A stretch of DNA of 64,000 bases from Alphaproteobacteria bacterium (GCA_965205535.1 CBDBHH010000005.1:266712-330711), one strand, 5' to 3'. Positions 29,768-64,000 are shown, counted from the first letter of the stretch. Notes: generated by a model from the sequence alone, not told the origin. A program made the numbers and translations.

Positions 29768-31226
29768 TCAGAACGTCCAGCGTCGGTTGAGCCCGATCGA
29801 AAGCCTGTAGTTGTTGTAGGTGTAGTTACGACACCTGCCGATACGCTTCGCCGCCGAATGTGAATGTAAACGGTGTCCAGAACTCCCCGGCATTGGTGAA
29901 AATGCCCGACCAGGGGATGCCATAAGTCATCCGGACACGTCCGCCCCAGTCATGGCGGGTTTGGGCGCTGATCGATGGATCCCGGTCGTCGTAGCGATCA
30001 TTGTTGACGGTCAATGATGTCAGCAAAAAATCGCCGCCGCCGAACAACAGCGTGTGGCTTAAGCCGATCTCCATTCCATCGTAAGAATTGTAGCTGCGAG
30101 ACGCGATATTGCGGGTCTGGGTATATGTGACACGCAGGCGCTGACGTGGGGTCAGAATCTGCGAGGTTCCAACTTCGATCTCATACTCACGCCCGCTACG
30201 TTCCGTGGCCGTCAGGCTGCTCGTGATGTTGTTGTAGGACTGATATTTCATTGTCCCGCCGGCAAAAACCGACCAGGTGTTGGAAAGCGCATAGACCCAA
30301 TCAACAGTGGCACCCGCTGCCGTGAGATACTTCTCGCGCGACAAGTCGATGCGCTCATAGAGAAGACGCGGCGTTATTGTCGACGGTGCAAAATCAAGCT
30401 CGTACCCGAAATCGGCGGTGATGGCACGCAGGTCCAGGTCATCCTGCTGGATCTGTTCTCCCTGGTAGAAAACCAGCCCACCAAGCATCTTGTGCTGTTT
30501 CTGCAGTCCGAGGTCATGCTCAAAGGAAATCTGAGCCAAACCATTCAAGGCCATATCATCCTGGCGCGCGGAACTGCCGGTCGTTCGTGTCGGCAAATCA
30601 GCGGCGAGGCGGAGCTCGGACTTCGGTGACGCGTTGCGGTTCCAGTCATACTGGGTGGCGAAATTCATCGCGAAAGTGAAGATCGTCCGCTTGCGACGTG
30701 ACGCAATTTGGTCGAGATACTGGTCGATCTGGCGCCGCAGCTCAGGTGCCAGGTCCAGTTCCTGCAAGGAAACCAGTTCACGCTCGGCCTCATCGAGGTT
30801 GTCGAGACGGAAAAGGACGATTGCGAATAAAACCCGCACCACGGCCAGGTCGGGACGGATCAGGAGAATACGTTCCAGCGTCGCGCCCGCGCCACGCACA
30901 TTGCCATCACGAATTTGGGTCAGCGCATATCGAACGTTGAGTTCAATATTGTCGGGGTCTTCAAGCACCTGTTCGAATGTTACGGGCGGCCCCTTGCTGA
31001 AGGCCTCCAGGTCAAGTGCGTCCTGGGCTGTTCGCTCAACATCACGCTGAGTCTCGATCGATTCACGTACATCGGTTTCACGGGATTCCGTGTCCGACTG
31101 CTGGGCATGCGCAGGCACCGCGATTACGATCGCTCCGGCGATCACCAACCCATAGCGAAAACCGCACCGCACACGCCCATGCGCGCGCAATAGAGAACTC
31201 GGCACTCGAACCAACGAAACCCCCAA
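29768..31226 (-). pseudogene. outer-membrane protein with N-terminal TPR-like region and C-terminal beta-barrel (DUF560/Slam-like architecture); apparent frameshift near 29826-29832
   Basis: 466 aa ORF 31226..29826 has a signal peptide (AIVIAVPAHA) and a TPR-like helical region, then a strand-like sequence. The last beta-strand with terminal aromatic residue (...NYTYNNYRLSIGLNRRWTF*) is in the +1 frame immediately after the annotated stop. Confidence 0.5.
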
Positions 31227-36583: not shown

Positions 36584-37960
36584 TTAGGCGGACTGGCGTT
36601 CAAGGATCTCCGCGCGCAGCTGGGCCTGGCGTTCAGCCGTCAGCGGATAGCGCCAAACAATCCCTAGTGCCAAAAGTTTGAAGACGATGGGGCAAACGCC
36701 GAACAGAATCGCGAGCACCAGCAAGGCACTGTCGCCGTTATACATATCGGGCACAAACCCGGCCCGCGCGAGAATAAGGAGCGATAATCCACCGACGAGC
36801 GCCGCGGCAGCCTTGGCCGCCATTGCCCAGACGGCGAAGAAAATCCCGGTACGTTGCTGGCCTGTTCTGAGAATATCCTGATCCACAACATCGGCGAGCA
36901 TTGAAGCGGGCATAGCGAGATCGGCACCCAATGTAAGCCCTGCCACCATCGCAACGAACAAAAACGGAATGGCGTCGCCGGAGCCCAAGAACGGAACCGT
37001 CGAGAAAGTCGCGATCGCAAGAATGAGCGCGAAACGCCACGCCACATGTTTGCCAAGCCAGCCTGCGAGCAACATCCAGAGCGGTGTTCCGAGGATCGCA
37101 GCGCCGAAATAGACTGCGAGATAGATGGGCTCCCAATCAGGGCGCTCTATGACCTGCTTAATGTAGAAAAAGAACAACGCCACCGGAAACGCGTTGGCTA
37201 TCCCGTTCGCGAAATAGCAGGCCAATATTCGCAGATACGGCTTGTTGTCGAGCATTTGACGCATGCCATCACGCCAGTTTACCGACGGTCCGGTGAAACT
37301 GGGAACCGGTCGTTCGCGCACAAAGAAGACCGTCGCCACGATCGGGATCGGCAATATCATCATGCCAACGATGCCAATCAAATTCAGCGCGTCCCGTTCA
37401 GGGAAGAAGGCAATGCCCCCTTTGTTCGCGATAAGAAACAAGCCCGACGCAATCAGCGTACCGACGACCGAGAAAAGATGACGATAGAGAAATATCCGGC
37501 TGCGCTGATGATATGAGGTGCTGAGTTCCGCTCCCATCGCGGTGTAGGGCATGAACAATGCTGTGCCCGACGTGAACAACACAAAACTCCACACTGCCAG
37601 GTAAACGACATCCGCATCTGGCGGCGGCAGGAAGACTTTGTAGATTGCCAATGTGAGTGGCGCCCATGCCAACACCATCCAGGGAATGCGCCGCCCAAAC
37701 CGACTGCGTGTCTTGTCGCTCAACCATCCGATCAGCGGGTCGGTCACGAAATCCCATACGCGCGTGGCCAAAATCACAAACCCCGCGTCGACCATGGATA
37801 TTCCGCCGAGCGACGAATAGACCTTCGGCAAAAACATGAAAACACCGATCGCGAGCAACGAAACAGGCATGGAGATCGACCCGAACACGATCAGCGTCGT
37901 CAGGCTCAAACGATCCGTGGCATGATCTGGCTGCGCGGTCGTATCATCCTCCGCGGTCAT
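36584..37960 (-). CDS. MFS transporter (GPH/MelB-like sugar:cation symporter family)
   Basis: 458 aa, 12 predicted TM helices, GPH-type motif DKTRSRFGRRIPWM. Confidence 0.75.
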   Translation of the reverse strand: MTAEDDTTAQPDHATDRLSLTTLIVFGSISMPVSLLAIGVFMFLPKVYSSLGGISMVDAGFVILATRVWDFVTDPLIGWLSDKTRSRFGRRIPWMVLAWAPLTLAIYKVFLPPPDADVVYLAVWSFVLFTSGTALFMPYTAMGAELSTSYHQRSRIFLYRHLFSVVGTLIASGLFLIANKGGIAFFPERDALNLIGIVGMMILPIPIVATVFFVRERPVPSFTGPSVNWRDGMRQMLDNKPYLRILACYFANGIANAFPVALFFFYIKQVIERPDWEPIYLAVYFGAAILGTPLWMLLAGWLGKHVAWRFALILAIATFSTVPFLGSGDAIPFLFVAMVAGLTLGADLAMPASMLADVVDQDILRTGQQRTGIFFAVWAMAAKAAAALVGGLSLLILARAGFVPDMYNGDSALLVLAILFGVCPIVFKLLALGIVWRYPLTAERQAQLRAEILERQSA

Positions 37961-38161
37961 ATGTTCGCGTTTCGGGACAAAACCCGTTCCCCATCACCTG
38001 TCAACTCGGCACCCCCGCCGAATTCTAGATATAACCCTTGGGAAGGCATGTGGCTGTAACGTAATTGTCAACGTGGTCGCCGCGCCAACGTCGCGTTGGC
38101 CCCGGTGACAACCGGTAAAAATACCGTGCCCAGACCCAATGAGATCACATATACCCGCCCA

Positions 38162-51943: not shown

Positions 51944-52351
51944 TCAGGCGCCGCTGGCCGAACAAGCCAATTCAAGCCGCGTCTCTTCGGCCAGCAGAAG
52001 CGCCCACGTGTCGGCCGGCATGAAACGCGGTGCCAGATACTTGTAAAGGTCGCGCAAAAGGGGCGTCACGGCATAGGGGTCAGAAATATTGCCCGGCAGG
52101 CGGTCCCATGATTCCGCGATCTCGTCCCAGGGGTTCAGGCGGGCGAACATCTCATCGCGAATATCGCGGATTGCGCTGCGGTGGAATTCAAAATTTTCGA
52201 ACAGGGAAACGATATTCGAAAGGCGCGCATCGATCTCGGCCAGGCTAAGTCCCAACGCGTGAACGGGGACTGAAATAAGCCGGGCGACCGGATCTACATC
52301 GCTGAGAATGCTCGCATGGTGGGCAAAGTCGCGGCGCACTATTTTTCGCAA
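51944..52351 (-). CDS. hypothetical protein (possible gene remnant) abutting the island's left direct repeat
   Basis: 135 aa ORF whose first codons overlap repeat copy 1; no motif recognised. Confidence 0.3.
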   Translation of the reverse strand: MRKIVRRDFAHHASILSDVDPVARLISVPVHALGLSLAEIDARLSNIVSLFENFEFHRSAIRDIRDEMFARLNPWDEIAESWDRLPGNISDPYAVTPLLRDLYKYLAPRFMPADTWALLLAEETRLELACSASGA

Positions 52352-52912
52352 TCAGTAGTTAGGGGCTTCAGTCCAGTGCCATGGGCAGGACCGGCTGTTC
52401 CGGCCGCCCCGCCACCGCGCCGGGAACCGTGAACCGCCTGCCGCCGAATATATCGGCGACGGTCAGCATCTGCTGCATTCGGGTTCCCCAACTTCACACC
52501 CCGCGCCTTGGCGGCCTGCAAGGCTGCCTTCGTGCGGATGGAAATGGATTCCCGCTCATGCTCGGCCACAGCGGCCAGAATGTGCATGGTCAGGCGATTT
52601 GCCTCCGGCATATCGACGGCCACAAAGTCCGCACCGCTCTCCATCAGATTTGAAATGAAGGCGACACTCCGTGCCAACCTGTCCAGTCTGGCAATGAGCA
52701 AGGGTGCCTTCTTCTGGCGGCAAAGGGTTAGGGCTTCAGCTTAGGGCAGGGCGGTCATTCTTCCTGCCGCTCTCGATCTCCGTGAATTCAACCAGCAATT
52801 CACCACGACCGGCAATGAAGCGGGTCACTGCTTCGCGCTGCGCTTCCAGGCCAAGGCCGGAACGGCCTTGCCTATCAGTCGATACCCGGAAATAGCCCAC
52901 AAAATCAGTCAT
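52339..52912 (-). pseudogene. serine recombinase (resolvase/invertase family) with a +1 frameshift near 52731-52733; its 3' end lies inside the direct repeat
   Basis: N-terminal fragment MTDFVGYFRVSTDRQGRSGLGLEAQREAV... (catalytic Ser context) ends at NDRPALS*. Removing one A from cctaagct restores ...NDRPALAEALTLCRQKKAPLLIARLDRLARSVAFISNLMESGADFVAVDM...KARGVKLGNPN. Confidence 0.6.
52347..52473. repeat. 127-bp direct repeat, copy 1 (left boundary of the island)
   Basis: Identical to 62675..62801 except for 2 mismatches (G/A at 52370 and C/T at 52427 in copy-1 coordinates). Confidence 0.8.
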
Positions 52913-53010
52913 GTGAGACAGTCTAGCGGCCTTCCGTATAAAAATCAAACGTGGGTTTGATTTTTATACAACTTAAACCAATGCCCTTTAAAAGGGCGCA
53001 AACAGCCCCA

Positions 53011-55323
53011 CTATCCCTTCTTTGTGAAAGCGATAGTTCTGGTGCAATGATTGACGAGTTCCTGATCGTTGATGATCTCTATAGCATATGCGGGGTTTGT
53101 TTCATGGTGAAACTTGTTGGCATAGTCGAGCAGTTTACGGAGCTCGTCAGCATCCGCCTGATTCAAAATCGGTGTTCCTGCTGTCAATGCCTGCACACAT
53201 TCACTGTGGAATGGCCCCAACATTTTACCCGGCGGAAAATGGGCGGGGTAGGCAACACGCAAAAAGGCTTCCAGAACATAGCGCAGGGCAGTAGCAACCT
53301 CTCGCGCTTTGCTTTGATCAGACTGGTTAAGATACTGCTGAATCAGGGCATGTCGCTTATCATGCTCCGTGATGCAATCCTGCGTTACGTCCCAAGTATC
53401 AATAGTTGATGATTGACCGCTTCGGATGATGTGCAGCGCAGCGCGGGCTGTCTTATCAGCGCCTTCCCAAACCTGACAAAGGAACGGTTTTGAGTGTGAA
53501 AGAAGGATAACCTGCTGAACACGCTGTGCCAGCCCCCGAACCTCTTGAATCGTTGCGAGTGATCTATGCTCATCCAGACTGGTCATCGGATCATCAATGA
53601 CAATGACCTTTTGTGCTAGCCCTGCATCCTGATCAAGAGACGCAAGAAAGAAAGCAAGAGCCAGGGTGTTTCTATCTCCGGCGCTCATCGTATTCCTGAA
53701 TGAAGGGCCATTATTACTGGCAAGCGGCACAGAAACATTGTTGATCAACACATTGTATGTGCATGATGATCCGCCTCTGTTATTTTGAGCGGAAACGCTA
53801 TCCAGCCGGAAACCTGCATTGAACTTACCCAGGTAATCGTTGATCGCCTGCTGATATGTGGCGAAGATACTGGCGCAATATTGTTCAAGGTCAGTCTTTG
53901 CCTTGTCACGCTTCTCCTCTGTTTTCTTCTTTTCCCCTTTCTCTGCCAGATAAGCATCGCAATGCTTTGCCACATCTGATTCAAATCGTGCCTTGATCGT
54001 TTTCAATCTGTTCAAGTCATCCGTTAGCGTTGCCACATTAGCTGTGGCCGCTTTTTCTTTCACGGCCTGGATCGGATCATTGCATTCGATCAGGCTTGAA
54101 GAGAGCCCTGTAATGGCCTCACGATGCCCGTCATAGGATTTTACAGCCTCAAGAATATCTTCGGAAAGAGTCATCTTCTCAAGAGGTGAGGCCAGCTTTG
54201 CTCTCAAGATTTCAAGGATAGGCTCACGCGCTGCTTTCCAGGCGCGGGCAATCTCTGCTGTATCGACCTGAATAGCAAGAATATCCGTGAATTTCCGCCA
54301 GAATTCACCGTTCTGAATTGCTTCACTGACAGCACGTTCAAAGGCAGATTGGATTTCTCCCTTGTGAGCATCAGCAATCGACTTTCCAATGTCAGTGATA
54401 GCCTGCTTCAGGGAAGTGTAAACATCACTGAAATAGGTCTCATAGTGAGCAATAATATCTGAATCTTTCAGCTCTTGGTCACAGAACGGGCATCGCTGTT
54501 CATCATCAGAAGAGTCGGCGATCTTCTGCATCCCCTCACCAATCCAGGACTCCGCACCTTTACCCAATTTTTCAAGATGCTGCTTCACTCTGGTTGTTGC
54601 TTCGACCTGCAATCCAGGCAAGTCACGTTGAAGGATTGCTTCAATCGCAGCGGTATCGAATTCAGGCAGTGATAGGGGCTTGAACTCGCCTTGCTTATTG
54701 ATTGGATCAGCGTCTTTCGCAGCGGCCAGATTTCGTTCAGCCTGCTGAATCTCATCATCTATATCTATTTTGGGATTCTTCTGCAACGCGCAGAAGTCCT
54801 CAACATTAATTGTGCCTCGCGCCTTGACAGGAATAGCCGCTTCCTTGGTTTTCAGGGTGCGATTATGCTCTTCGATTTTGCTGATATGCCCTTTCAGGGA
54901 TTCATTCAGCGCAATCCCCTGCGCCCCTAGAATAAGCTCATGCAGCTTCTGTTTATGGCCAGAATCAACTACAACTCCCGAACAAACATTCTCGACCACA
55001 AAGTGATCGTCGAAAATAGCGATTTCCGGGAGATGGGTCTGCCATGCACCATTTTGAAAAATGAACGATTGCTGGCCATTTGCCTGCACAACGATATGTG
55101 GATCGGCATTTGCATGAGGGGCGGTGCCGGATTGCAAGCGTTTCCGTTCTTCGATCAATGTTGGATTATTGGTGCTCAAAGAGCGTAGCAAATTGGCAAG
55201 GGTTGTCTTCCCTCGTCCATTCTCGGCATATATCAGCGTCATGCCGGAAAATCTCGTTTGCTGCCCTGGGGAGACGCTATCGAATTGCCCAACATTTCTG
55301 ATCAGTTGAATCTGCTCAATCAT
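53011..55323 (-). CDS. AAA_13-family ABC-type ATPase with coiled-coil/CxxC insertion and a C-terminal about 130-aa domain (RloC/PrrC-like putative anticodon nuclease)
   Basis: Walker A YAENGRGKTTL, central CPFCDQ in a predicted coiled coil (zinc-hook-like), ABC signature MSAGDRNTLALAF, Walker B VIVIDDPMTSLD, H-loop LLSHS. Confidence 0.65.
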   Translation of the reverse strand: MIEQIQLIRNVGQFDSVSPGQQTRFSGMTLIYAENGRGKTTLANLLRSLSTNNPTLIEERKRLQSGTAPHANADPHIVVQANGQQSFIFQNGAWQTHLPEIAIFDDHFVVENVCSGVVVDSGHKQKLHELILGAQGIALNESLKGHISKIEEHNRTLKTKEAAIPVKARGTINVEDFCALQKNPKIDIDDEIQQAERNLAAAKDADPINKQGEFKPLSLPEFDTAAIEAILQRDLPGLQVEATTRVKQHLEKLGKGAESWIGEGMQKIADSSDDEQRCPFCDQELKDSDIIAHYETYFSDVYTSLKQAITDIGKSIADAHKGEIQSAFERAVSEAIQNGEFWRKFTDILAIQVDTAEIARAWKAAREPILEILRAKLASPLEKMTLSEDILEAVKSYDGHREAITGLSSSLIECNDPIQAVKEKAATANVATLTDDLNRLKTIKARFESDVAKHCDAYLAEKGEKKKTEEKRDKAKTDLEQYCASIFATYQQAINDYLGKFNAGFRLDSVSAQNNRGGSSCTYNVLINNVSVPLASNNGPSFRNTMSAGDRNTLALAFFLASLDQDAGLAQKVIVIDDPMTSLDEHRSLATIQEVRGLAQRVQQVILLSHSKPFLCQVWEGADKTARAALHIIRSGQSSTIDTWDVTQDCITEHDKRHALIQQYLNQSDQSKAREVATALRYVLEAFLRVAYPAHFPPGKMLGPFHSECVQALTAGTPILNQADADELRKLLDYANKFHHETNPAYAIEIINDQELVNHCTRTIAFTKKG

Positions 55324-56525
55324 CCGGCCACCTCATTTTTCTTCAAACAAGCTCCGCCTGGATCATAGACGTATCCTGAAATTGTGCCGTCCTTGATGCG
55401 CTCGACGGCTTCCTTGATGACAAAAAGCGGGACAAGGAACCATTCACGCGGGATCACTGGCCGTCCAAACCTGTCCTTGATCTCAACCTCAAGGCGGGCA
55501 GGCTCGAAAATGCGGTGAATGAGGTTTTCCAGCTTGGTGCGGTTGATGTTGTAAAGCTCGTAGGTCGCCACGATCTCCACATTCGCCATGAGGAATGTTG
55601 GCTGAAGGTGCGCCCCTGCAATCCGCTTCTCAACGCTCATATTGGTGACGCCAATCTTGTGAACCAGCTCCCGGTTTTCTTCGACAAGCGGGTGTTCTGA
55701 CTTGCTGCGCAGCACATAAATGATGCCACTTGCTTCATCCCCGTCGATCGTCTGATCAGAAAATAGCGGGCCTGCGGTTGGCTCTGTGATCCTACGGCCT
55801 GCTTCGTCCTTGTTCAGGGCTCGCTGTAGCGAGCGCATCAGCATGTTGCTCTTGGTGCCGTTGTCAAAAATCACGCGAAGGCGGGCGTCTGTGCGCCCCT
55901 GATCGGTGATTGTCGTTTCGCCTTTCTCGGCCACATATGCCTTCTGGCCTCCGACAATGAAGAACCGGCCTTTCTCGATCTCGGCCTTCATCTCGAAGGG
56001 ACGTGTCTCACGCAAGCCAGAATTCAGCTCTGCCTGCACCTGCTCAAACAGGGGCTTGAAGGTCTCAAAATCCTCGCAGCGGGTGCGACTGGCCACTTCA
56101 TCAGCAGCGGCTCTTTTCTCGGCGGTCGATCGGACGTGCTTCAGCTCGGTGATCGGCGGCGCATCGAGCTCGACGCCAAGCTCGGCCAGCAGCGCGTCAT
56201 CATCCAGCTCGGCTGGGTCTGCATCTGCGGTGATTGCAGCCATGTCACCAAGCAAGCCTTGATGATCCATTGGCTCGACCAATTCCCGGCAATCCTTCAG
56301 CTTGCGGATACGATCCAACCGAACGGCATAGAGCCGTTCAAAAATATCCCGGTCTTCACCATGCAGGGGAGGGCGGCCATGCTCTTCAGCAAAGCGTTGC
56401 ACTTCCTCAAAGCCTGCAATGACACGCTGTTCGCGGGGGGTGTATGTTGCAGCCTTCTTGGTCTGCACCTCGACGCCAAGCTCGGCCAGCAGCGCGTCAT
56501 CATCTTGTGTGAATTCCTTAGCCAT
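55320..56525 (-). CDS. T5orf172/GIY-YIG-like nuclease-domain protein with duplicated N-terminal DDDALLAELGVE motif
   Basis: GIIYVLRS ... HKIGVTNMSVEKRIAGA matches the T5orf172/MUG113 pattern (YV...KIG.T.....R). A 37-bp perfect DNA repeat (56168-56203 and 56469-56505) encodes the duplicated peptide; overlaps the helicase gene by 8 nt. Confidence 0.55.
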   Translation of the reverse strand: MAKEFTQDDDALLAELGVEVQTKKAATYTPREQRVIAGFEEVQRFAEEHGRPPLHGEDRDIFERLYAVRLDRIRKLKDCRELVEPMDHQGLLGDMAAITADADPAELDDDALLAELGVELDAPPITELKHVRSTAEKRAAADEVASRTRCEDFETFKPLFEQVQAELNSGLRETRPFEMKAEIEKGRFFIVGGQKAYVAEKGETTITDQGRTDARLRVIFDNGTKSNMLMRSLQRALNKDEAGRRITEPTAGPLFSDQTIDGDEASGIIYVLRSKSEHPLVEENRELVHKIGVTNMSVEKRIAGAHLQPTFLMANVEIVATYELYNINRTKLENLIHRIFEPARLEVEIKDRFGRPVIPREWFLVPLFVIKEAVERIKDGTISGYVYDPGGACLKKNEVAG

Positions 56526-58575
56526 TGGCGGCCTCCTGCTTCATTCGCGCAAGATAGGCAACGCCTTCTGCCATTTTCTTTTCCCAGGCATCAGACGATG
56601 TGAGGGACGGCAACCGGCCACGATCCTGCTTGAATTTCAGGGCGCGTTGCGCAAGGTCTCGCGCCTCTTCAGGGGTGAGTTTGATCTTCTTGGCTGAAAT
56701 GATCGCCGCAATCCTCTTCAGGCTCTCTTCGCTCATGGTCTTTGCCAGGATCGCGTATGCCTCACCGAATGGATTGATCCGGTCGATCAAGTCAATGTCC
56801 AGTTCCCGCACGTCCATTGCGAATTTCCGCACCCCGTCGATCAGGGCGGTATTGCCGCCGGGATTGTCATCATCATCGCCGCCGGACAGGGCGATTTCCT
56901 TTGCCTTCTGTGTCAGGTTAAGGGCGGCAATCGCATGTTGCCGCACGGCTTCCTGATCCTCTGCATCCAGCTCCGGGAATTTGTCTCCGACGATCTTGCC
57001 CATGCGCACCTGTGTCAGCTCTTCTGGCACAAGCTCTTCATCAAACAGGCCGCGCTCGATCGCGGTCTTGTCTTGCACAAAGGCGGTGATCACTTCGTTC
57101 AAATCCTCACGGCAAATCCGTTCGGCTTCCTTGCTCTTCGGCTCAGCAAGTCCCTTGATTTCGATCTGAAAGCTGCCCTGTTCCTCATTGAAGCCGATAT
57201 TCGCCTTGTTCGGATCATAGCCGCCTTCGCCATAATCAAAGCCCTCTACAGGGCCGCTATTGGCGTTCTTGGGCGTGAAATTGAAGCGGGGCGCTAGCAC
57301 CTGCTCCATCAACAGGCTGGCGGCAATGGCCTTCAGCGTGTCATTGATGGCTTCGGTCACTGCCTCTTCAGACGCATCCGGCGCGGCAATCAGGTTTGTG
57401 AAGCGGGCGCGTGATTTGCCCTTCGCATCACGGGTTGCCCGTCCAATGATCTGCACGATCTCGGTGAGACTGGCACGATAACCAACAGTCAGGGCGTGTT
57501 CGCACCAAATCCAGTCAAAGCCTTCCTTGGCCATTCCCAGGGCAATGATGATGTCCACATGATCCCGGTTGTCCTTGTGCGCCGGGTTTTTCAGCGCAGC
57601 GGAAACACGGTCACGCTTGGCGGGTTCATCATCCACCAGGTCAGCGATTTTCAGCACACGGCCTTCAGATGTTTTGACAAGCTGGAAACCTGTTTGTGGA
57701 TCAGGCCCTTGCCATTCACCTAACTCTTCCATGATGTGCTCGACTTCGCGGTGCTTGTCCTTGGTGCTCTCACGGGAATTGACGTTTGGGATATGCAGGA
57801 TCGTCTTCTCGTTCGGATCGAGCACCTTCAGGATGTCATCGGCATAGGAGCCGGAATAGAAGAAATAGCCGATGTCGAGCGTCTTCAGGTATTGGTAGCC
57901 GTTCAACTGCTCATAGTAGGTGTAGGTGACGCTATCGAATTTCGCTTCATCCTCCGGCGACAGGACGGCTTCTGCATCGCCCCGGAAATACGATCCCGTC
58001 ATGGCGACAAGATGCACCTTGTCGCGGGAAATGAAGTCTCCCAGGTGCTGCCCCAGCTTGTTGTCCGGGTTGGCGGAAACATGGTGGAATTCGTCAACCG
58101 CAATCAGCCGGTTGTCGAAGGCTTCCACGCCGAATTTGTCCACGGCAAAGCGGAACGTGGCATGGGTGCAGACAAGCACCTGATCGTCACTGTCCAGGAA
58201 GGCACCAACTGAATTGACCTTGCCGCCGTCCGTGCCGGGGGCGTTGCACAGATTCCATTTTGGCTGCACTGTCCAGTCAGCCCAAAAGCCGAATTTTGAC
58301 AGCGGCTCATCATTGAAGCTGGAGCCGATAGACTTCTCCGGCACCACGACGATTGCTTGCTTCAGCCCCTGATTTTGCAGCTTGTCGAGCGCAATGAACA
58401 TCAGCGCACGGCTTTTCCCGGATGCAGGCGGCGACTTGATCAGAAGATATTGCTCGCCCCGTTTCTCAAAGGCGCGTTCCTGCATTGTCCGCATTCCAAG
58501 CTCGTTGGACTTGGTTGAATTGCCGGTCTGGGCGTAGGTCACGGAAACGGAGGGGACGGATTTCTGAACGGTCAT
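56518..58575 (-). CDS. DEAD/DEAH-box (SF2) helicase with a C-terminal about 250-aa extension
   Basis: Walker A LLIKSPPASGKS, DEAH-like VDEFHH, motif VI QIIGRATRD. Confidence 0.75.
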   Translation of the reverse strand: MTVQKSVPSVSVTYAQTGNSTKSNELGMRTMQERAFEKRGEQYLLIKSPPASGKSRALMFIALDKLQNQGLKQAIVVVPEKSIGSSFNDEPLSKFGFWADWTVQPKWNLCNAPGTDGGKVNSVGAFLDSDDQVLVCTHATFRFAVDKFGVEAFDNRLIAVDEFHHVSANPDNKLGQHLGDFISRDKVHLVAMTGSYFRGDAEAVLSPEDEAKFDSVTYTYYEQLNGYQYLKTLDIGYFFYSGSYADDILKVLDPNEKTILHIPNVNSRESTKDKHREVEHIMEELGEWQGPDPQTGFQLVKTSEGRVLKIADLVDDEPAKRDRVSAALKNPAHKDNRDHVDIIIALGMAKEGFDWIWCEHALTVGYRASLTEIVQIIGRATRDAKGKSRARFTNLIAAPDASEEAVTEAINDTLKAIAASLLMEQVLAPRFNFTPKNANSGPVEGFDYGEGGYDPNKANIGFNEEQGSFQIEIKGLAEPKSKEAERICREDLNEVITAFVQDKTAIERGLFDEELVPEELTQVRMGKIVGDKFPELDAEDQEAVRQHAIAALNLTQKAKEIALSGGDDDDNPGGNTALIDGVRKFAMDVRELDIDLIDRINPFGEAYAILAKTMSEESLKRIAAIISAKKIKLTPEEARDLAQRALKFKQDRGRLPSLTSSDAWEKKMAEGVAYLARMKQEAANG

Positions 58576-58578
58576 GGT

Positions 58579-61350
58579 CTATGCTTTTCTCTTTTGTCTG
58601 GTTGTTTTGGCCTCTGCGGTCATTTTGGTGTAAAGCTCGAACAGCTTTTCCAGCCGTTCGGTGTCATTGCGAAATCGTCTGCCGATATAGATGCGTTCAA
58701 GCACTTCGTCGTTGCGCTCATGCGCAGCGCGCAGGTTTTCGGGCATGGCGTCGGGTTTGTAGAGGTCCGCGATGGTGGCGGGGAAATGCGCCTCACGGGC
58801 CAAGAGGATGTCCTCTGCGCAGCGGGTCAGATCGGCGCGGTTTTTCTCGGTCAGTCTGGGGACGGGAAAGGTGTTCCAGCCGAGGGTGTTGGAATAGCGA
58901 TATCGGGTTTCCAACTTGCCACAGACCGTGGCGATCCAGACCAGATGAATGCGCGATGCGATCAGCGCCATGTTCCACAGTGGCGCGTCGTAGAGGGCGA
59001 AGGCGAGGTTTGAGACAATGGTCCCTCTTTCAGAATACCCACACGGCAAGAACTGACGTGTTTCAGAAGAAACACTCGGCACAATCATAACGGTTTCCGA
59101 GCCGCTCTGCCGCAGTTCTCCAAACTTGTGAGGTCGTTTTGCTGCATCTCTTGTTGCTTGCTTGGTACTGGCCAGACGCATTTGCTTCACAGCTTCAATT
59201 CTAGAAGCCAATTGAGGGGATTGCCCAACCCATTCGGCATCATCATCACCAATCCACAGACAGAAGCGTTCATTGCCTCTGATAAACTCCGATGATCCAT
59301 ATATTTTACGAACGATCTTCTTATACTGTTCATCAGTAAGTGCCAGCGCTGTGATCTCAGCCGGCTCAAGAAGGAGATTTCCTCCATCTGTGGGCTGATT
59401 GCCTTTTGTCATTTCAGAAATTATCGAAATTGGCTTCGAACACTTTAGGACTTCAACATTCGGCGCGCCCACCAAATAGGCGTTGATGTTCTCGACCTCT
59501 TTCATCACCGCCTCATTTTCGACATTCAGGCTATAGAGCCTGCGCGTCTGGTTCGTCATGTTCGACACCGCAATAATCGCCACGGTGACGCCCGCATTGT
59601 GGCTGGCAAGGTTGGCCCATTTAAACGATGTATGGGCAAAGCTGATATGGTGGCCGGTGGCAAAGATCGCGGGCCAGAGGATCGGCACCTGCTGTCCCTG
59701 ACAGATCGAATTGGTGGACACAAAGGCCGCGCTTGAATTGGTGTGCAGCCCAAAATCAGCAGCCTTCATGAACCAGCCCGCGACATAATCCAGTGTCTTC
59801 CAGTTCTTGACCCGCCCATCAAAGATCGCCTTCAGGTCTTCCTTCTGTTCCGTGCTTTGCCATTGGCTGCCAAGATACGGTGGATTACCGCAAATATAGG
59901 TCTCACCCCCTTCATTCTCAAAGTCGATCTCGGCTTGATCAACAGGTGTCATGAAAAGATCATCGCCATGCACCTTCACACCCGTTCCCGTGGGTGGGCA
60001 GATGCTCAACCAATCTACCCGCAAGGCATTACCACAGGTGATCCAGTTCATCGCATCCAGTGGCAAGAATTCGGCCAAGGCTTCCTTCTGGCCGCGATAG
60101 GTCACGTCACACTGATACTCGGCAATAATCAAAGCCAGCCGGGCAATTTCAGCGGGGAAGTCGCGCAGATCAATTCCCCGAAAATTAGTCAGTGGAATCT
60201 CGGTGTGCCGGTCGCCTTCACCGCGCCTTTTGTTGATTTCGGCCTCGATCTCCCGCATTTCCTTGTAGGCAATGACAAGGAAATTTCCTGATCCGCAGGC
60301 GGGATCAAATACCCTGATCTTGGCCATGCGGTTGCGCAGGTTCAGCAGCTTGCGGAGATTATCTTCTGCCTCTTCCAGCTTCTCGCGCAGGTCATCAAGA
60401 AACAGGGGATTGAGCACCTTCAGAATGTTCGGAACGCTCGTGTAGTGCATCCCCAAAGCCCCGCGCTCATCCTCATCGGCCACGGCCTGGATCATCGAGC
60501 CAAAAATATCGGGGTTGATTTTTGTCCAGTCCAGATTGCCGATATGCAGCAGGTAGGATCAGGCAATCTTGCTGAAGCGCGGCACGTCTGTTCCGTCTGA
60601 AAACAGGCCGCCATTCACATAGGGGAAGTCCTTTGCCCAACGAGCAATTCCGGCGGTGTCAAAGTCTTCAGCCCGCGTGTTCATCGAGCGGAAAATCTCG
60701 CTGATCACTTCATGGGTGTTCGAGCTATCCGGGGCGCTCATCTTCTCGATGGTGCATGTGAACAGGTCGGCCTTGCCGAAAATGTCGGTGTCTTCGGCAA
60801 AGAAACAGAAAATCAGCCGCGCCATGAAGTGGTTCATGTCGTGGCGGCGTTCTGCCTGCCCCCATTCGGGATTGTCTTTCAGCAGCTCCACATAGAGCCG
60901 GTTCAGGTGTCCGGTTGCCTTGATGTCGAAGGCATTGTCGCGGATTTGCTTGACGGTCGAGATTCCGGCCAGGGGCAGGAAAAAACCAAAGTGATCGGGG
61001 AAGTCGGGAAAATCACAGACAATGACTTCACCGCTATTCAGGTCTTCAGCCGAAAAATCGCTGCCGTCCGTTGCCAGCACAAATTTGGCCTTGGCCTTTG
61101 TGGTGGCGGGGCTTGCCTTCAGCTCGGCAAGGGTCTCGGCAACCTTGCCAGCAGGCGCGGCCTTGATATGGATATTGTTGGTCTGCAACACGCCTCCCAC
61201 ATCGGAGCGGTTGGACGTGCCTTTGCGCAGGCGCTTCAGGGTCGTCGGCTTGTTGCCGAATGCCTGAAGGAAGGCAAAGGCGAATTCTTTCGGCGCGAAT
61301 GGCTCGGCGGCAAGATTTGAGATTGCTTCTTCGATCTCGACGGCGTTCAT
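58579..61350 (-). pseudogene. MmeI-family type IIG restriction-modification enzyme (N-terminal endonuclease, then gamma-class N6-adenine MTase, then TRD) interrupted by an in-frame TGA at 60559..60561
   Basis: ORF 61350..60559 carries the MmeI-like nuclease/helical region (RLIFCFFAEDTDIFGK, FPYVNGGLF) and ends at ...PRFSKIA*. The same frame continues as SYLLHIGNLDWTKINPDIFGSMIQAV- into ORF 60495..58579, which carries MTase motifs I (FDPACGSGNFL) and IV (NPPY). Confidence 0.75.
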
Positions 61351-62432
61351 GTGCGCCCCTCGTCATTCGTCTCGCGTGTTCCCATTGGCAGGCCATACCA
61401 GATGGCTCGGCCTGCGCCATGCCGGACAAGCATTCCCTTGTCCATCAGGCTGCGGAATGTGGCTTTCAGGGTGTTCGGGCTGGCTCCGTGCTCCCGCACC
61501 ATGTCGCGGTTTGTAACGCGGCCATGCTGGCGGGCATAGTCCAGGATCATGACGGCCAGCTCTGGCAATTCAGCAAGGGCGCGTTCCTCGCGCTCTATCT
61601 TGTCGGCCAGGCGGCGCTTCTGGTGCTGCAAGGATCGCATGAAAAACAGCAGCCAGGGCTGCCAGTCCGGGGCATCGCTGCGGATGGTTGCCTGTGTCTG
61701 GCGCAAGGCCAGATAGTAGCCTTCCTTGCTGTGCTCGATCACGCTCTCAAGGGATGAATAGGGGACATAGGCATAGCCTGCCTGCAACAGCAGCAGGGTT
61801 GTGAGGACACGGCTCAAGCGTCCGTTTCCATCCTGAAAGGGATGGATTTCAAGGAATACCACGGTGAAGACAGCGACGATCAGCAGGGGGTGCAGGCGCT
61901 TCAGCTCTCGCGCCTCATTCAGCCATTGCAGCAGCTCCGTCATGCGCTGCGGCGTATCGAAGGGGGTGGCGGTTTCAAAGACGATCCCGACCATTTTGCC
62001 GGATGCGTCGAAGGCTCCCACGTCATTGCGCCCGGTCTTGTATTCGCCCCGGTGGCGTTCGTCTTTGGCGCCGTAACGCAGCAAGTCGCGGTGAAGCTGT
62101 TTGATGTGGTTTTCCGTGATGGGAATGTCCTGCCATGCCTGAAACACGGTCTCCATGACCTCGGCATAGCCTGCAACTTCCTGCTCGTCACGGCTATCGA
62201 ATTTCTTGATGTCCAGCTTGCCCAGCAGCTCTTCCACCTCACGATCAGACAGCTTGCTGCCCTCGATGCGGGTGGATGATCCGATGCTCTCGATCATCGC
62301 CACACGGCGAAGGGCTTGCAGCCGTTCCGGCGCAAGCGTTCCAAGAGCCCGCCATGCGCCCTTAAACTCGTCTATTTCGGAGAGAAGGGACAGTAATCCG
62401 GGTGTGATCTGAATCGTTTCGGTCTGAATCAT
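61347..62432 (-). CDS. Fic-family protein (AMPylation-type catalytic motif) with C-terminal winged-helix region
   Basis: Canonical HPFQDGNGRLSR motif; 361 aa; overlaps the MmeI-like gene start by 4 nt. Confidence 0.85.
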   Translation of the reverse strand: MIQTETIQITPGLLSLLSEIDEFKGAWRALGTLAPERLQALRRVAMIESIGSSTRIEGSKLSDREVEELLGKLDIKKFDSRDEQEVAGYAEVMETVFQAWQDIPITENHIKQLHRDLLRYGAKDERHRGEYKTGRNDVGAFDASGKMVGIVFETATPFDTPQRMTELLQWLNEARELKRLHPLLIVAVFTVVFLEIHPFQDGNGRLSRVLTTLLLLQAGYAYVPYSSLESVIEHSKEGYYLALRQTQATIRSDAPDWQPWLLFFMRSLQHQKRRLADKIEREERALAELPELAVMILDYARQHGRVTNRDMVREHGASPNTLKATFRSLMDKGMLVRHGAGRAIWYGLPMGTRETNDEGRT

Positions 62433-62435
62433 ACC

Positions 62436-62495
62436 CGTAAATATACCGGATTATGCCGGATTGTAAACCGGAATAATTGCCGGATTATACCCGAT
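62436..62495. promoter_or_regulatory. array of 4-5 direct repeats of [T/C]ATAATCCGG-like sequence upstream of the Fic gene (candidate operator/promoter)
   Basis: Minus-strand reading: cataatcggg tataatccgg caattattccgg tttacaatccgg cataatccgg; spacing about 10-12 bp. Confidence 0.4.
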
Positions 62496-62674
62496 TATGC
62501 AGCCTCGGCGCTTTCCAGTGGTTTTTCACAGTCGCCGCAAAGCAATCTTGCGGATGGTTTTGCCCAGGCATTGAGGCCGCAACCGGCGCACTGAAACTTG
62601 ATCCGGCCCTTCGGCTTCACCGGGGCAGGGGTGGTCTCGCCTTCGGCTTCGCCCTGATCGGCGTTTTTATTATT

Positions 62675-62801
62675 CGCAATCAGTAGTTAGGGGCTTCAAT
62701 CCAGTGCCATGGGCAGGACCGGCTGTTCCGGCCGCCCCGCCACCGCGCCGGGAATCGTGAACCGCCTGCCGCCGAATATATCGGCGACGGTCAGCATCTG
62801 C
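62675..62801. repeat. 127-bp direct repeat, copy 2 (right boundary of the island)
   Basis: See copy 1. Confidence 0.8.
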
Positions 62802-62960
62802 ATCCGCGCATATTGCACGCCGCCCACATCGAGGTCTCCCGCCGCCGCCATCTCGCGCCGGAAGTTGGCCGCCTTCCGCGCCCCGAGCTCCTCCATCACG
62901 ATCAGCCCGGCCATGGGTGCGTCCTCACGTTCCAGCACCCCGCGCAGGTCCCGCACCACG

Positions 62961-64000
62961 CCGATGATCATCACCGCCGGCCAGCAGGAGACGGGCCACG
63001 GCCTGACCGAGCCGCTGCTCTATGACCCGCTCGCCCCCATCGCAACACCGGTGGTGAAGTGGGCGACGGAGGTGACCCGGCTGGAAGATTTGCCGCGCAT
63101 CATGCGACGTGCCGGCAAGGTGGCGATGACCGCCCCGACGGGGCCGGTGTTCATCTCGCTGCCCGGTGACGTGCTGAACGACCGCAAGGGCATCGATCTG
63201 GGATCGCGCACCCGCGTCGACACCGCCATGCGACCGTCCGATGCGGGTCTGGAAGCGCTGGCCGACCGTCTGCTCGCCGCGAAACGACCCGCGATCCTGG
63301 CCGGCAACGAGGTGGTGACGTCCGACGCATTGGCAGAGGTTGCGCGGTTTGCGGAAGTCCTGGGCGCGCCAGCGTTTCAGCAAACCACGGCCTATGGTTC
63401 GTTTTTCCCGTCCGAACATCCGGCCTTCATGGGCGCCCTGTCGCGAAACCAGAAGGAGGTTCGCGGGATTCTCGAAGACTATGACCTGCTGGTCGTGGTC
63501 GGGGCGGATGTCTTGCGCATGTCGGTGATGAGCGAGACCGAACCTCTGCCCGACGGCATGCCGATCGTCCAGATCGGCCTGTTCGATTGGGATATGGGCA
63601 AGAATTATCCCGCCGACACGGCCGTGCGCGGCGACGTGCGCGAGACCCTCGCAGTGCTGAACCCGGTGATCGAGGGGCGGACCGACCATGCGGACACGGC
63701 CAAAGCCCGCCTCGCGGCGGTGGCCGACAGCAACTGGTCGGCGAAGCGCGCGCGACGCGCCGTCGAGCTGGCCGCTGATGCCGAGGTAACGCCGATCCGG
63801 TCGGACTGGTTGATGATGACCATCGCCGACACGCTTCCCGACGGTGCGATCACGGTCAACGAAGGCCTGACCACGACCTGGAACCTGCTCCAGTATCTGC
63901 CGTTGCGCGATCGCTACGACTTCCATTCCTTCGCCAGCGGCGGCATCGGCTGGGCCCTGCCCGCGGCCGTGGGCGTACAGATCGCCCAGCCCGACCGCCC
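62961..64000 (+). pseudogene. thiamine-diphosphate-dependent enzyme of the benzoylformate decarboxylase / acetolactate synthase family, 5'-truncated (N-terminal Pyr domain absent), running off the window end
   Basis: In-frame translation from 62961 gives PMIITAGQQETGHGLTEPLLYDPL...VKWATEVTRLEDLP...GPVFISLPGDVL ... GGIGWALPAAVGVQIAQPDR, matching BFD-like central and ThDP-binding domains. None of the three plus frames upstream encodes the expected N-terminal about 170 aa. Confidence 0.6.

Follow-up and report, generated by a model that had tools for sequence, protein, structure and literature searches.

In a 64,000-nucleotide stretch of an alphaproteobacterial genome assembly (GCA_965205535.1, CBDBHH010000005.1:266712-330711; hereafter the window), the segment from 52340 to 62956 is likely to be a mosaic, horizontally acquired defence island that replaced 2.9 kb of DNA in a marine Rhodospirillaceae-like alphaproteobacterium. 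An origin between two copies of an insertion sequence (IS) and the operon functions set out below form part of this reading, to which we give the same degree of belief. A preliminary description of the window had noted a low-GC island bounded by direct repeats and holding defence-type genes, and the GC content, the GC content at third codon positions (GC3), the repeat search and the domain search all agree on this. The island is 54.4% GC compared with 63.3% for the rest of the window, with values down to 0.47–0.59 between the repeat copies, and it is the sole run of ten consecutive 1-kb bins with a GC of 0.48–0.60 in the 64 kb. The GC3 of its genes (0.49–0.71) lies below that of the flanking genes (0.73–0.86), so that both measures fall across the island in the composition profile that had been proposed as a check. 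Elsewhere, two single 1-kb bins (30001–31000 and 37001–38000) had a GC of 0.56 amid DNA of 0.60–0.70 GC. The domain and PADLOC models returned the gene content listed earlier, and, as also listed, neither a tyrosine integrase nor a tRNA target is present at the island.

Relatives were found using the fragment of a thiamine diphosphate (ThDP)-dependent enzyme gene at the right flank as a probe, with one genome taken per species. The matches were marine Rhodospirillaceae-type metagenome-assembled genomes with 80–90% amino-acid identity. Comparison loci, 110 in total, carry labels such as L004, L086 and L120. Synteny on the left reaches 52339|52340 with L004, L005, L010 and L012 and 52301 with L009, and the alignment to relatives restarts on the right at about 62957. 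Between these two points the relatives hold 2.9–4.5 kb of other sequence. In L004 this comprises 133 N-terminal codons of a hypothetical gene (272 aa), a gene for a GMC oxidoreductase of 570 aa and the initial ~95 codons of the ThDP gene (552 aa). The island genes and the repeat are absent from all five syntenic relatives, in keeping with the proposed horizontal acquisition. The relatives' empty sites had been expected to hold one copy of the repeat; they hold none and have 2.9 kb in place of the 10,617 bp at 52340–62956, and the insertion was therefore coupled to a 2.9-kb deletion. Searches of plasmids with the flank sequences gave no useful match.

The left flank (51944–52339, minus strand) is the 3' half (~132 codons) of the conserved hypothetical gene, cut at the junction, and the right flank (62957–64000, plus strand) is the ThDP gene lacking its first ~95 codons and running off the end of the window. 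This gene was correctly described as truncated at its 5' end, but the loss is not a third: it amounts to about 95 of 552 codons (17%), and the stretch 62802–62956 is not homologous to it. A continuation of the ThDP frame through 62830–62956 was considered and rejected, as an alignment to four relatives shows no homology there. Foreign DNA thus reaches ~62956, 155 nt past the right repeat.

The direct repeat is longer than the 127 nt first reported. It spans 134 nt (52340–52473 and 62668–62801; 98% identity, 3 differing positions), and the 127-nt part, starting at 52347 and 62675 and containing 2 mismatches, is its inner portion. Two 40-mers taken from the repeat each occurred twice in the window, with none expected from shuffled sequence, and the repeat was not found in a collection of 72,556 plasmids or in any of the 110 comparison loci, the syntenic relatives included.

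The nature of the repeat emerged from an open frame on the minus strand at 62974–62696, here called X, residues 7–79 of which align to the C-terminal Mrr_cat-like domain of a Mod-type N6_N4 methylase (E 1e-12). As this alignment crosses the repeat border at 62801, the right copy is in its native context. A search with X retrieved 32 relatives with 55–72% identity, and these are the last coding part of IS1595-family elements. The element in L117 has, in order, a Zn_ribbon_IS1595/DDE_Tnp_IS1595 transposase, an N6_N4 methylase and X, and is bounded by inverted repeats (CGCAGTTATAAGTTATGGGCTTG ... CAAGCCCGTAACTTATAACTGCG) and an 8-bp duplication (TTAGAGAA). One genome has two copies of 1,035 bp, L115 and L116 (7439–8473 in each), that are 100% identical to each other and have perfect inverted repeats of 25 bp; each holds the transposase N-terminus and X and adjoins a tyrosine integrase gene, and an 8-bp duplication was not visible at either. 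This shorter element, a deletion derivative of the methylase-carrying one, resembles a non-autonomous form like a miniature inverted-repeat transposable element.

In the window, the sequence that follows the X stop codon, GAAGCCCCTAACTACTGATTGCG, agrees with the right inverted repeat at 16 of 23 positions and has the same ...TGCG tip, at 62675 and 52347. Read as the tip CGCAATCAGTAGTTAGGGGCTT against CGCAGTTATAAGTTATAGGCTTG of L115, L116 and L117, the agreement is again 16/23, and it is anchored by the homologous X coding sequence. From the tip and the 3' end of X together it follows that each repeat is made up of the 127 nt at the right end of an IS1595-family element and 7 nt that lie outside this element. 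The left copy (52340–52473) begins with the 7 nt TATTTTT, has its tip from 52347 and holds the last 35 codons of X on its minus strand. The right copy (62668–62801) begins with TATTATT and has the same 127 nt, and X continues past 62801, giving a right-end remnant of about 283–291 nt (62675–62965, minus strand) in which the tip of the inverted repeat is joined to the Mrr_cat-like C-terminal part of the passenger methylase X (stop at 62696). On sequence grounds, the repeats are best identified as ends of an IS1595-family transporter IS, and as neither att sites nor Tn3 ends. This replaces the earlier view of them as att-like or related to the recombinase. IS elements with passenger genes are documented in the IS1595 family (Siguier, Gagnevin and Chandler 2009). 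An alternative in which 62802–62956 was the remnant of an ordinary Mod methylase and the repeats a generic duplication junction was set aside because the contexts of the homologues show an IS1595-family element.

The left boundary of the island is known to the exact nucleotide and the right one to within 9 nt. At the right border the homology of the X family (residues IGV) and that of the ThDP gene overlap by up to 9 nt (62957–62965), as would be left by a microhomology deletion in which the remainder of the IS was lost together with adjacent chromosomal genes. Both borders of the left copy are novel junctions, the outer one (52339/52340) coinciding with the end of synteny and the inner one (52473/52474) with the end of homology to a resolvase, at residue 145 of about 228.

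This resolvase is a small serine recombinase pseudogene (52474–52912, minus strand) with an ATG at 52912 and a frameshift near 52740. The frameshift had been recognised before, but the 3' end of the gene does not lie inside the repeat as then supposed. Homology ends with the residues GNPN at nt 52477, and because it stops at the repeat border the repeat is not the 3' end of the recombinase. The preliminary description had favoured a serine-recombinase-mobilised or Tn3-like unit in which the repeats served as recombination or target sites. A resolvase-family gene does stand at one end beside the repeat, and resolvase genes adjoin RloC-like genes in L091 and in Xanthomonas pXcaw19 and lie near dnmA in Bacillus subtilis. 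Against this, a frameshift interrupts the gene, and its C-terminal ~83 residues, with the DNA-binding domain among them, are missing; the repeat combines an IS inverted repeat with the 3' coding end of X; the repeat search found no Tn3-type inverted repeats and the domain annotation no TnpA; and the empty sites lack the repeat, with 2.9 kb deleted and no target duplication. Such a unit now seems highly improbable. To judge from its sequence, the recombinase in its present state could not have moved the island, and the repeats are unrelated to it.

Composite-like acquisition is the route that we infer as most likely. The island would have arrived, or been assembled, as a segment between two directly oriented IS copies, in the manner of a composite transposon. 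Later deletions would then have removed the transposase and fixed the island, one of them joining the interior of the IS to the ThDP gene. The left copy would have kept 127 nt of the IS, fused to the truncated resolvase gene, and the right copy ~283 nt. A two-IS segment trimmed by deletions is the simplest reading of these junctions. As in IS-flanked composite transposons, two directly oriented copies bracket the cargo, and the inverted repeat and the 3' end of the passenger gene match those of the transporter IS in L117. Unlike L117, with its Zn-ribbon/DDE transposase and 8-bp duplication, and unlike an intact composite, the window has only stubs of 127 nt and ~283 nt, with no transposase, opposite end or target duplication, and a deletion junction forms one side. 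No functional mobility gene is left in the island, which could be looped out only by homologous recombination between the repeats.

Several observations weigh against this route. No IS1595 transposase, methylase body or opposite-facing inverted repeat was found in the window, so the composite-transposon route is read from remnants alone, and as only stubs are left these are remnants rather than an IS element. At the left junction, only 3 of the 7 nt match the hypothetical gene of the relatives, so that this junction does not represent a clean transposition into the gene. Between the two copies, the 7 nt beyond the IS tips agree at 6 of 7 positions, which fits either a copied junction or an A/T-rich target preference.

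A copied junction would mean that the left repeat is a secondary copy of the right IS-end junction, and that the whole piece entered by illegitimate recombination at both ends. The copy could have arisen as the junction of a 10,328-bp unit duplicated in tandem in the donor, as templated filler at a deletion junction, or by Campbell-type integration of a circle sharing the 134 nt. The extension of the repeat 7 nt past the IS tip with a single mismatch is what such a copy would give. In the left copy, each border is a new junction (resolvase|X at 52473/52474 and the 7 nt|hypothetical gene at 52339/52340), the right copy has its native context towards X, and the right island junction resembles a deletion with an overlap of up to 9 nt. 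A transfer junction falling just 7 nt outside an IS tip would, however, be a coincidence. The flanks of related elements at the same tip are also A/T-rich (AAAACCCA, AAAAAGAA and TAATATTT), so that the 6/7 agreement may reflect target preference, and no donor sequence with the duplication was found. We regard a secondary copy as unlikely. A circular or rolling-circle donor was rejected, since the right copy continues into native X and not into the resolvase.

The order chromosome–repeat–unit–repeat–chromosome is also what would be expected if a separate 10.3-kb circular or foreign sequence had been threaded into the assembly at a shared 134-nt repeat, and the source is apparently derived from a metagenome. 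Such a mis-join is hardly credible, as 3 positions differ between the repeat copies, genes for replication are missing from the 10.3-kb unit, and the outer border of the left copy is not chromosomal in the relatives, so that the chromosome would still need a copy of its own.

Turning to the cargo of the proposed IS-flanked segment, all of its genes lie on the minus strand, in the order Fic, MmeI-like, helicase, T5orf172 and AAA_13. They are closely packed, with a 4-nt overlap between Fic and MmeI-like, a 3-nt gap between MmeI-like and helicase, an 8-nt overlap between helicase and T5orf172 and a 4-nt overlap between T5orf172 and AAA_13; both of the 4-nt overlaps are ATGA start/stop overlaps. 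The operon would be driven from a promoter-like site upstream of the Fic gene and would yield, in turn, a SoFic-like Fic AMP-transferase, a DnmA/YeeA-type MmeI homologue, a YeeB-type DEAD helicase, a YeeC-type GIY-YIG/T5orf172 nuclease and an RloC-like ABC-ATPase that is a candidate anticodon nuclease.

By sequence and gene order, the three central genes are identified as a DnmA/YeeA-YeeB-YeeC cluster. The first (58579–61350) has 923 codons and all five MmeI Pfam domains and is predicted to encode a DnmA/YeeA-like methyltransferase/specificity protein of the MmeI family. It is followed by a YeeB-like DEAD/ResIII helicase gene (56518–58575, 685 aa) and a gene for a YeeC-like T5orf172/MUG113 protein of the GIY-YIG superfamily (55320–56525, 401 aa). 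On plasmids of Paracoccus, Nitrobacter and Klebsiella, DNA searches showed the MmeI-like, helicase and GIY-YIG genes as a single operon, with amino-acid identities to the island proteins of 62–67%, 77–85% and 58–77%, respectively. The same YeeA-YeeB-YeeC order and orientation was found in L001, L002, L003, L086 and L120. NCBIfam gave no specific name for the helicase, the GIY-YIG protein or the RloC-like protein.

YeeA-YeeB-YeeC of B. subtilis is the prototype of MmeI homologues without a nuclease motif, and a type-I-like machine in which the MmeI-like subunit gives specificity and methylation has been proposed (Morgan et al. 2009, PMC2731913). The conserved dnmA-yeeB-yeeC synteny was later confirmed (Fernandez et al. 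2023, PMC9973331). The helicase, T5orf172 and AAA_13 genes had previously been grouped as a trio that could not be placed in a named defence system. That grouping is not supported, as the conserved trio is MmeI-like, helicase and T5orf172 (PMC2731913, PMC9973331), and the helicase and T5orf172 genes belong to a cluster described in 2009. The AAA_13 gene was rejected as a member, being a separate RloC-like module with homologues beside restriction-modification (RM) genes of several types.

Residues 88–915 of the MmeI-like protein align to residues 108–907 of MmeI (PDB 5HR4; phmmer, E 2e-141). The nuclease motif of MmeI is D70...E80-x-K82, and the first ~87 residues of the window protein do not align there; an alignment of five YeeA-like N-termini revealed no conserved PD-ExK or D...ExK motif in residues 1–87. 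The window protein therefore falls in the second group of MmeI homologues. In a DnmA/YeeA-type cluster, the MmeI-like protein would be expected to place m6A on a single strand of an asymmetric site. Methyltransferase, target-recognition and C-terminal domains are present, but the lack of a nuclease motif and an in-frame stop set it apart from single-polypeptide type IIL enzymes. Cutting would presumably fall to the helicase and the GIY-YIG protein, which are encoded separately. The B. subtilis cluster likewise combines these MmeI-family domains with no recognisable PD-ExK N-terminus, is followed by helicase and T5orf172/GIY-YIG genes in the same orientation, and lies in a local GC minimum adjoining a serine recombinase and toxin-type genes. 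The island differs in that its MmeI-like gene has a premature TGA, in that the cluster is preceded by a translationally coupled Fic gene and followed by a translationally coupled RloC-like gene, and in that its sequences are proteobacterial (58–85% amino-acid identity to the plasmid copies and 92% nucleotide identity to L120). On the proposed reading, the YeeABC part would be a type-I-like restriction machine built around the MmeI-type specificity/methylase subunit.

The two MmeI open reading frames (ORFs) reported by the ORF finder are one frame split by that single TGA (60559–60561), where L086 has Arg; an ATG lies 20 codons 3' of it. Because of the premature stop in YeeA, the restriction part is probably inactive in this genome. 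Within the T5orf172 gene, a perfect 36-nt direct repeat (56169–56204 and 56469–56504, 300 nt apart) was observed, through which the motif DDALLAELGVE appears twice in the N-terminal half of the protein, a region with a weak Pfam match to HNH_repeat.

The closest match to the first four genes was L120, a 104-kb metagenome contig of 52.8% GC that carries Fic-YeeA-(HEPN)-YeeB-YeeC and is 92% identical at the nucleotide level to window positions 62517–59560 and 58563–55314. L120 has an unrelated segment for the target-recognition domain, an independently disrupted YeeA and no RloC gene. At L120 10001–12756 and 12753–13304, the YeeA-like gene is split into parts of 406 and 485 aa at a different place from the window gene, and an extra HEPN-domain gene separates YeeA from YeeB. 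That the methylase/specificity subunit has been lost repeatedly may be meaningful. In the window gene, the target-recognition segment (59005–59559) has no nucleotide similarity to L120 11790–12346, with both sides 80–92% identical, and is the stretch of lowest GC within the MmeI-like gene. It looks like a swapped specificity domain.

Other modules of the island have other nearest relatives. The Fic protein falls in the same 90%-identity cluster as a Fic protein annotated from Thalassospira, and the RloC-like gene is closest to that of L086 (93% amino-acid identity), the YeeC of which is only 64% identical. These differing relatives indicate that the island was assembled from at least three sources, which by sequence comparison would be the Fic-YeeABC module, the RloC module, joined exactly at the YeeC stop codon, and the resolvase.

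The disruption of YeeA in the window, and independently in L120, weighs against a functioning restriction system, as does the report that dnmA-yeeB-yeeC gave no protection from phage in one published test in B. subtilis and was called a relic (PMC9973331). Together with the resolvase pseudogene and the reduction of the IS to stubs, these findings could mean that the operon is decaying and has no current defence function, its restriction part being defunct and its other genes merely carried along until they are lost. We consider this somewhat unlikely. The Fic, YeeB, YeeC and RloC-like genes are full-length with intact motifs, YeeB and YeeC are 92% identical to L120 at the nucleotide level without lesions, and a single stop may be recent or, given the ATG downstream, may leave two working polypeptides.

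The last gene of the operon (53011–55323, 770 aa), the start of which overlaps the upstream stop, was matched by Pfam AAA_13 and by the PADLOC candidate model PDC-S06 (E 1e-76), and its best matches in the PDB were Rad50. It was aligned with 14 homologues from metagenomes (32–93% identity). In all 14 the Walker A motif (G38-K39-T), the signature LSAGDR (547–551), the Walker B residues DD (577–578) and the switch histidine H610 are invariant, as are a CPFC zinc hook (C278-P-F-C281) between the Walker A and signature motifs and the triad R681-x3-E685-x53-H739(H740), with a spacer one residue above the published 36–52. RloC is defined by a size of 658–897 aa, Rad50-like ATPase motifs, a CxxC zinc hook and an R-x3-E-x36-52-H triad (PMC2610378). 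The size, ATPase motifs and hook of the window protein thus fit RloC, and its triad resembles the published one apart from the longer spacer. The spacer of 53 counts against the assignment; we call the gene RloC-like and, from its motifs, treat a wobble-nucleotide-excising anticodon-nuclease role as a candidate function.

The likeness to RloC extends to the long insert that holds the hook, the C-terminal position of the triad and the linkage to RM genes. The differences, apart from the Glu-to-His spacer, are that the window gene is linked to a YeeABC-type cluster and its homologues to type II or III rather than type I RM, and that PADLOC files the protein as PDC-S06. PrrC is a poorer comparison, as it has about 340–420 aa, lacks the coiled-coil insert and is found in a type Ic hsd locus, whereas the window protein has 770 aa with an insert; no hsd genes are present in the island, and the PADLOC match to PrrC covers only the ATPase core. 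A terminator-like hairpin (52983–52997, minus strand; consensus match only) lies just 3' of the RloC-like gene.

The order YeeA-YeeB-YeeC-RloC and the 4-nt YeeC/RloC overlap are found again in L086, where the genes lie on a conjugative element that also encodes a coupling protein and ArdA. Other homologues follow a type III res gene with a 4-nt overlap (L087 and L094), follow a PaeR7I type II RM system (Methylocystis pMpar-2), face a BsuBI/PstI RM system (Sphingobium pSPHCH01), or overlap a resolvase gene beside two N6 methylases (Xanthomonas pXcaw19), and HsdR genes are also found near RloC-like homologues. These neighbourhoods match the restriction-linked pattern behind the RloC name, and the repeated coupling of an RloC-like gene to YeeABC and the exchange of that gene among RM types are mildly new.

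Within the defence-island reading, the RloC-like protein would act as a restriction-linked second line that disables translation when restriction fails, a back-up role that we infer from the analogy with PrrC-EcoprrI. By extension of this analogy, it might be a dedicated, coupled guard of the YeeABC helicase–GIY-YIG restriction complex, with Fic co-regulated upstream and the guard exchangeable among type II, type III and YeeABC systems. This further step is speculative and, in our estimate, quite unlikely to hold. If true, it would mean that the PrrC-EcoprrI logic has moved onto a type-IIL-derived system, and that the YeeABC cluster is a working restriction machine in proteobacteria.

The first gene of the operon (61347–62432) encodes a 361-aa SoFic-like Fic protein, as judged from Pfam (Fic, E 3e-17), PADLOC (SoFic, E 4e-50 over nearly the full length) and the translation, which contains HPFQDGNGRLSR, conforming to the Fic motif HxFx(D/E)GNGRxxR, and an N-terminal STRIEG inhibitory motif. 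The PADLOC model match, the canonical Fic motif and the N-terminal inhibitory motif are shared with SoFic. The protein scored 61 bits and did not reach the 550-bit NCBIfam equivalog cut-off for SoFic, and, in contrast to the single-gene SoFic, it is the first gene of a five-gene operon, overlapping the next by 4 nt. At least 8,000 Fic homologues were found, as all of the 8,000 best candidates that were scored passed E <= 1e-20. Among the best 120 listed, identity was 80–92%, the contexts were unrelated, and the named sources include Sumerlaeia, Verrucomicrobiales, Magnetococcales, Rhodothermales and Alphaproteobacteria. The gene looks unusually well conserved and widely transferred. The island was not shared by the contexts of the close homologues L084 and L085. 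The match P0001 was discarded because its high score is due to a duplicated Fic domain.

The promoter-like site upstream of Fic, TTTACA-16-TATATT (62467 to 62440, minus strand; consensus match only), lies within a five-repeat array, the two together spanning 62440–62498. The array itself (62446–62498) consists of five tandemly spaced CCGGATTAT-like motifs (CCGGATTAT, CCGGATTGT, CCGGAATAAT, CCGGATTAT and CCCGATTAT) and overlaps the promoter-like site. In L085 and L120 the stretch likewise accompanies the Fic gene (85–92% identity), and it may be an operator for the C-terminal winged-helix domain of the Fic protein itself. A 41-aa ORF (62495–62620, minus strand) with two CxxC pairs (MKPKGRIKFQCAGCGLNAWAKPSARLLCGDCEKPLESAEAA) has no Pfam match. 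The homology to L120 ends inside it, at 62517, so the intervening 150 nt, from the Fic module to the IS tip, have yet another origin, possibly a gene fragment.

By sequence, every component of the island is placed in a described family (DnmA/YeeABC, RloC, SoFic, small resolvases and IS1595-family IS), and the locus would be an ordinary, partly broken defence island with functions inferred by homology. It is a clear and datable case in which a defence island has replaced resident genes, with relatives at 80–90% identity providing the empty sites, and it illustrates that a long direct repeat resembling att sites can instead be an insertion-sequence stub. Apart from these two points and the constructs named next, the locus is ordinary. 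The DnmA/YeeA-YeeB-YeeC cluster has been known since 2009 with no demonstrated function. Its occurrence at 92% nucleotide identity in a second marine contig, on conjugative plasmids, and twice joined to an RloC-like gene provides concrete constructs for questions about restriction and its monitoring.

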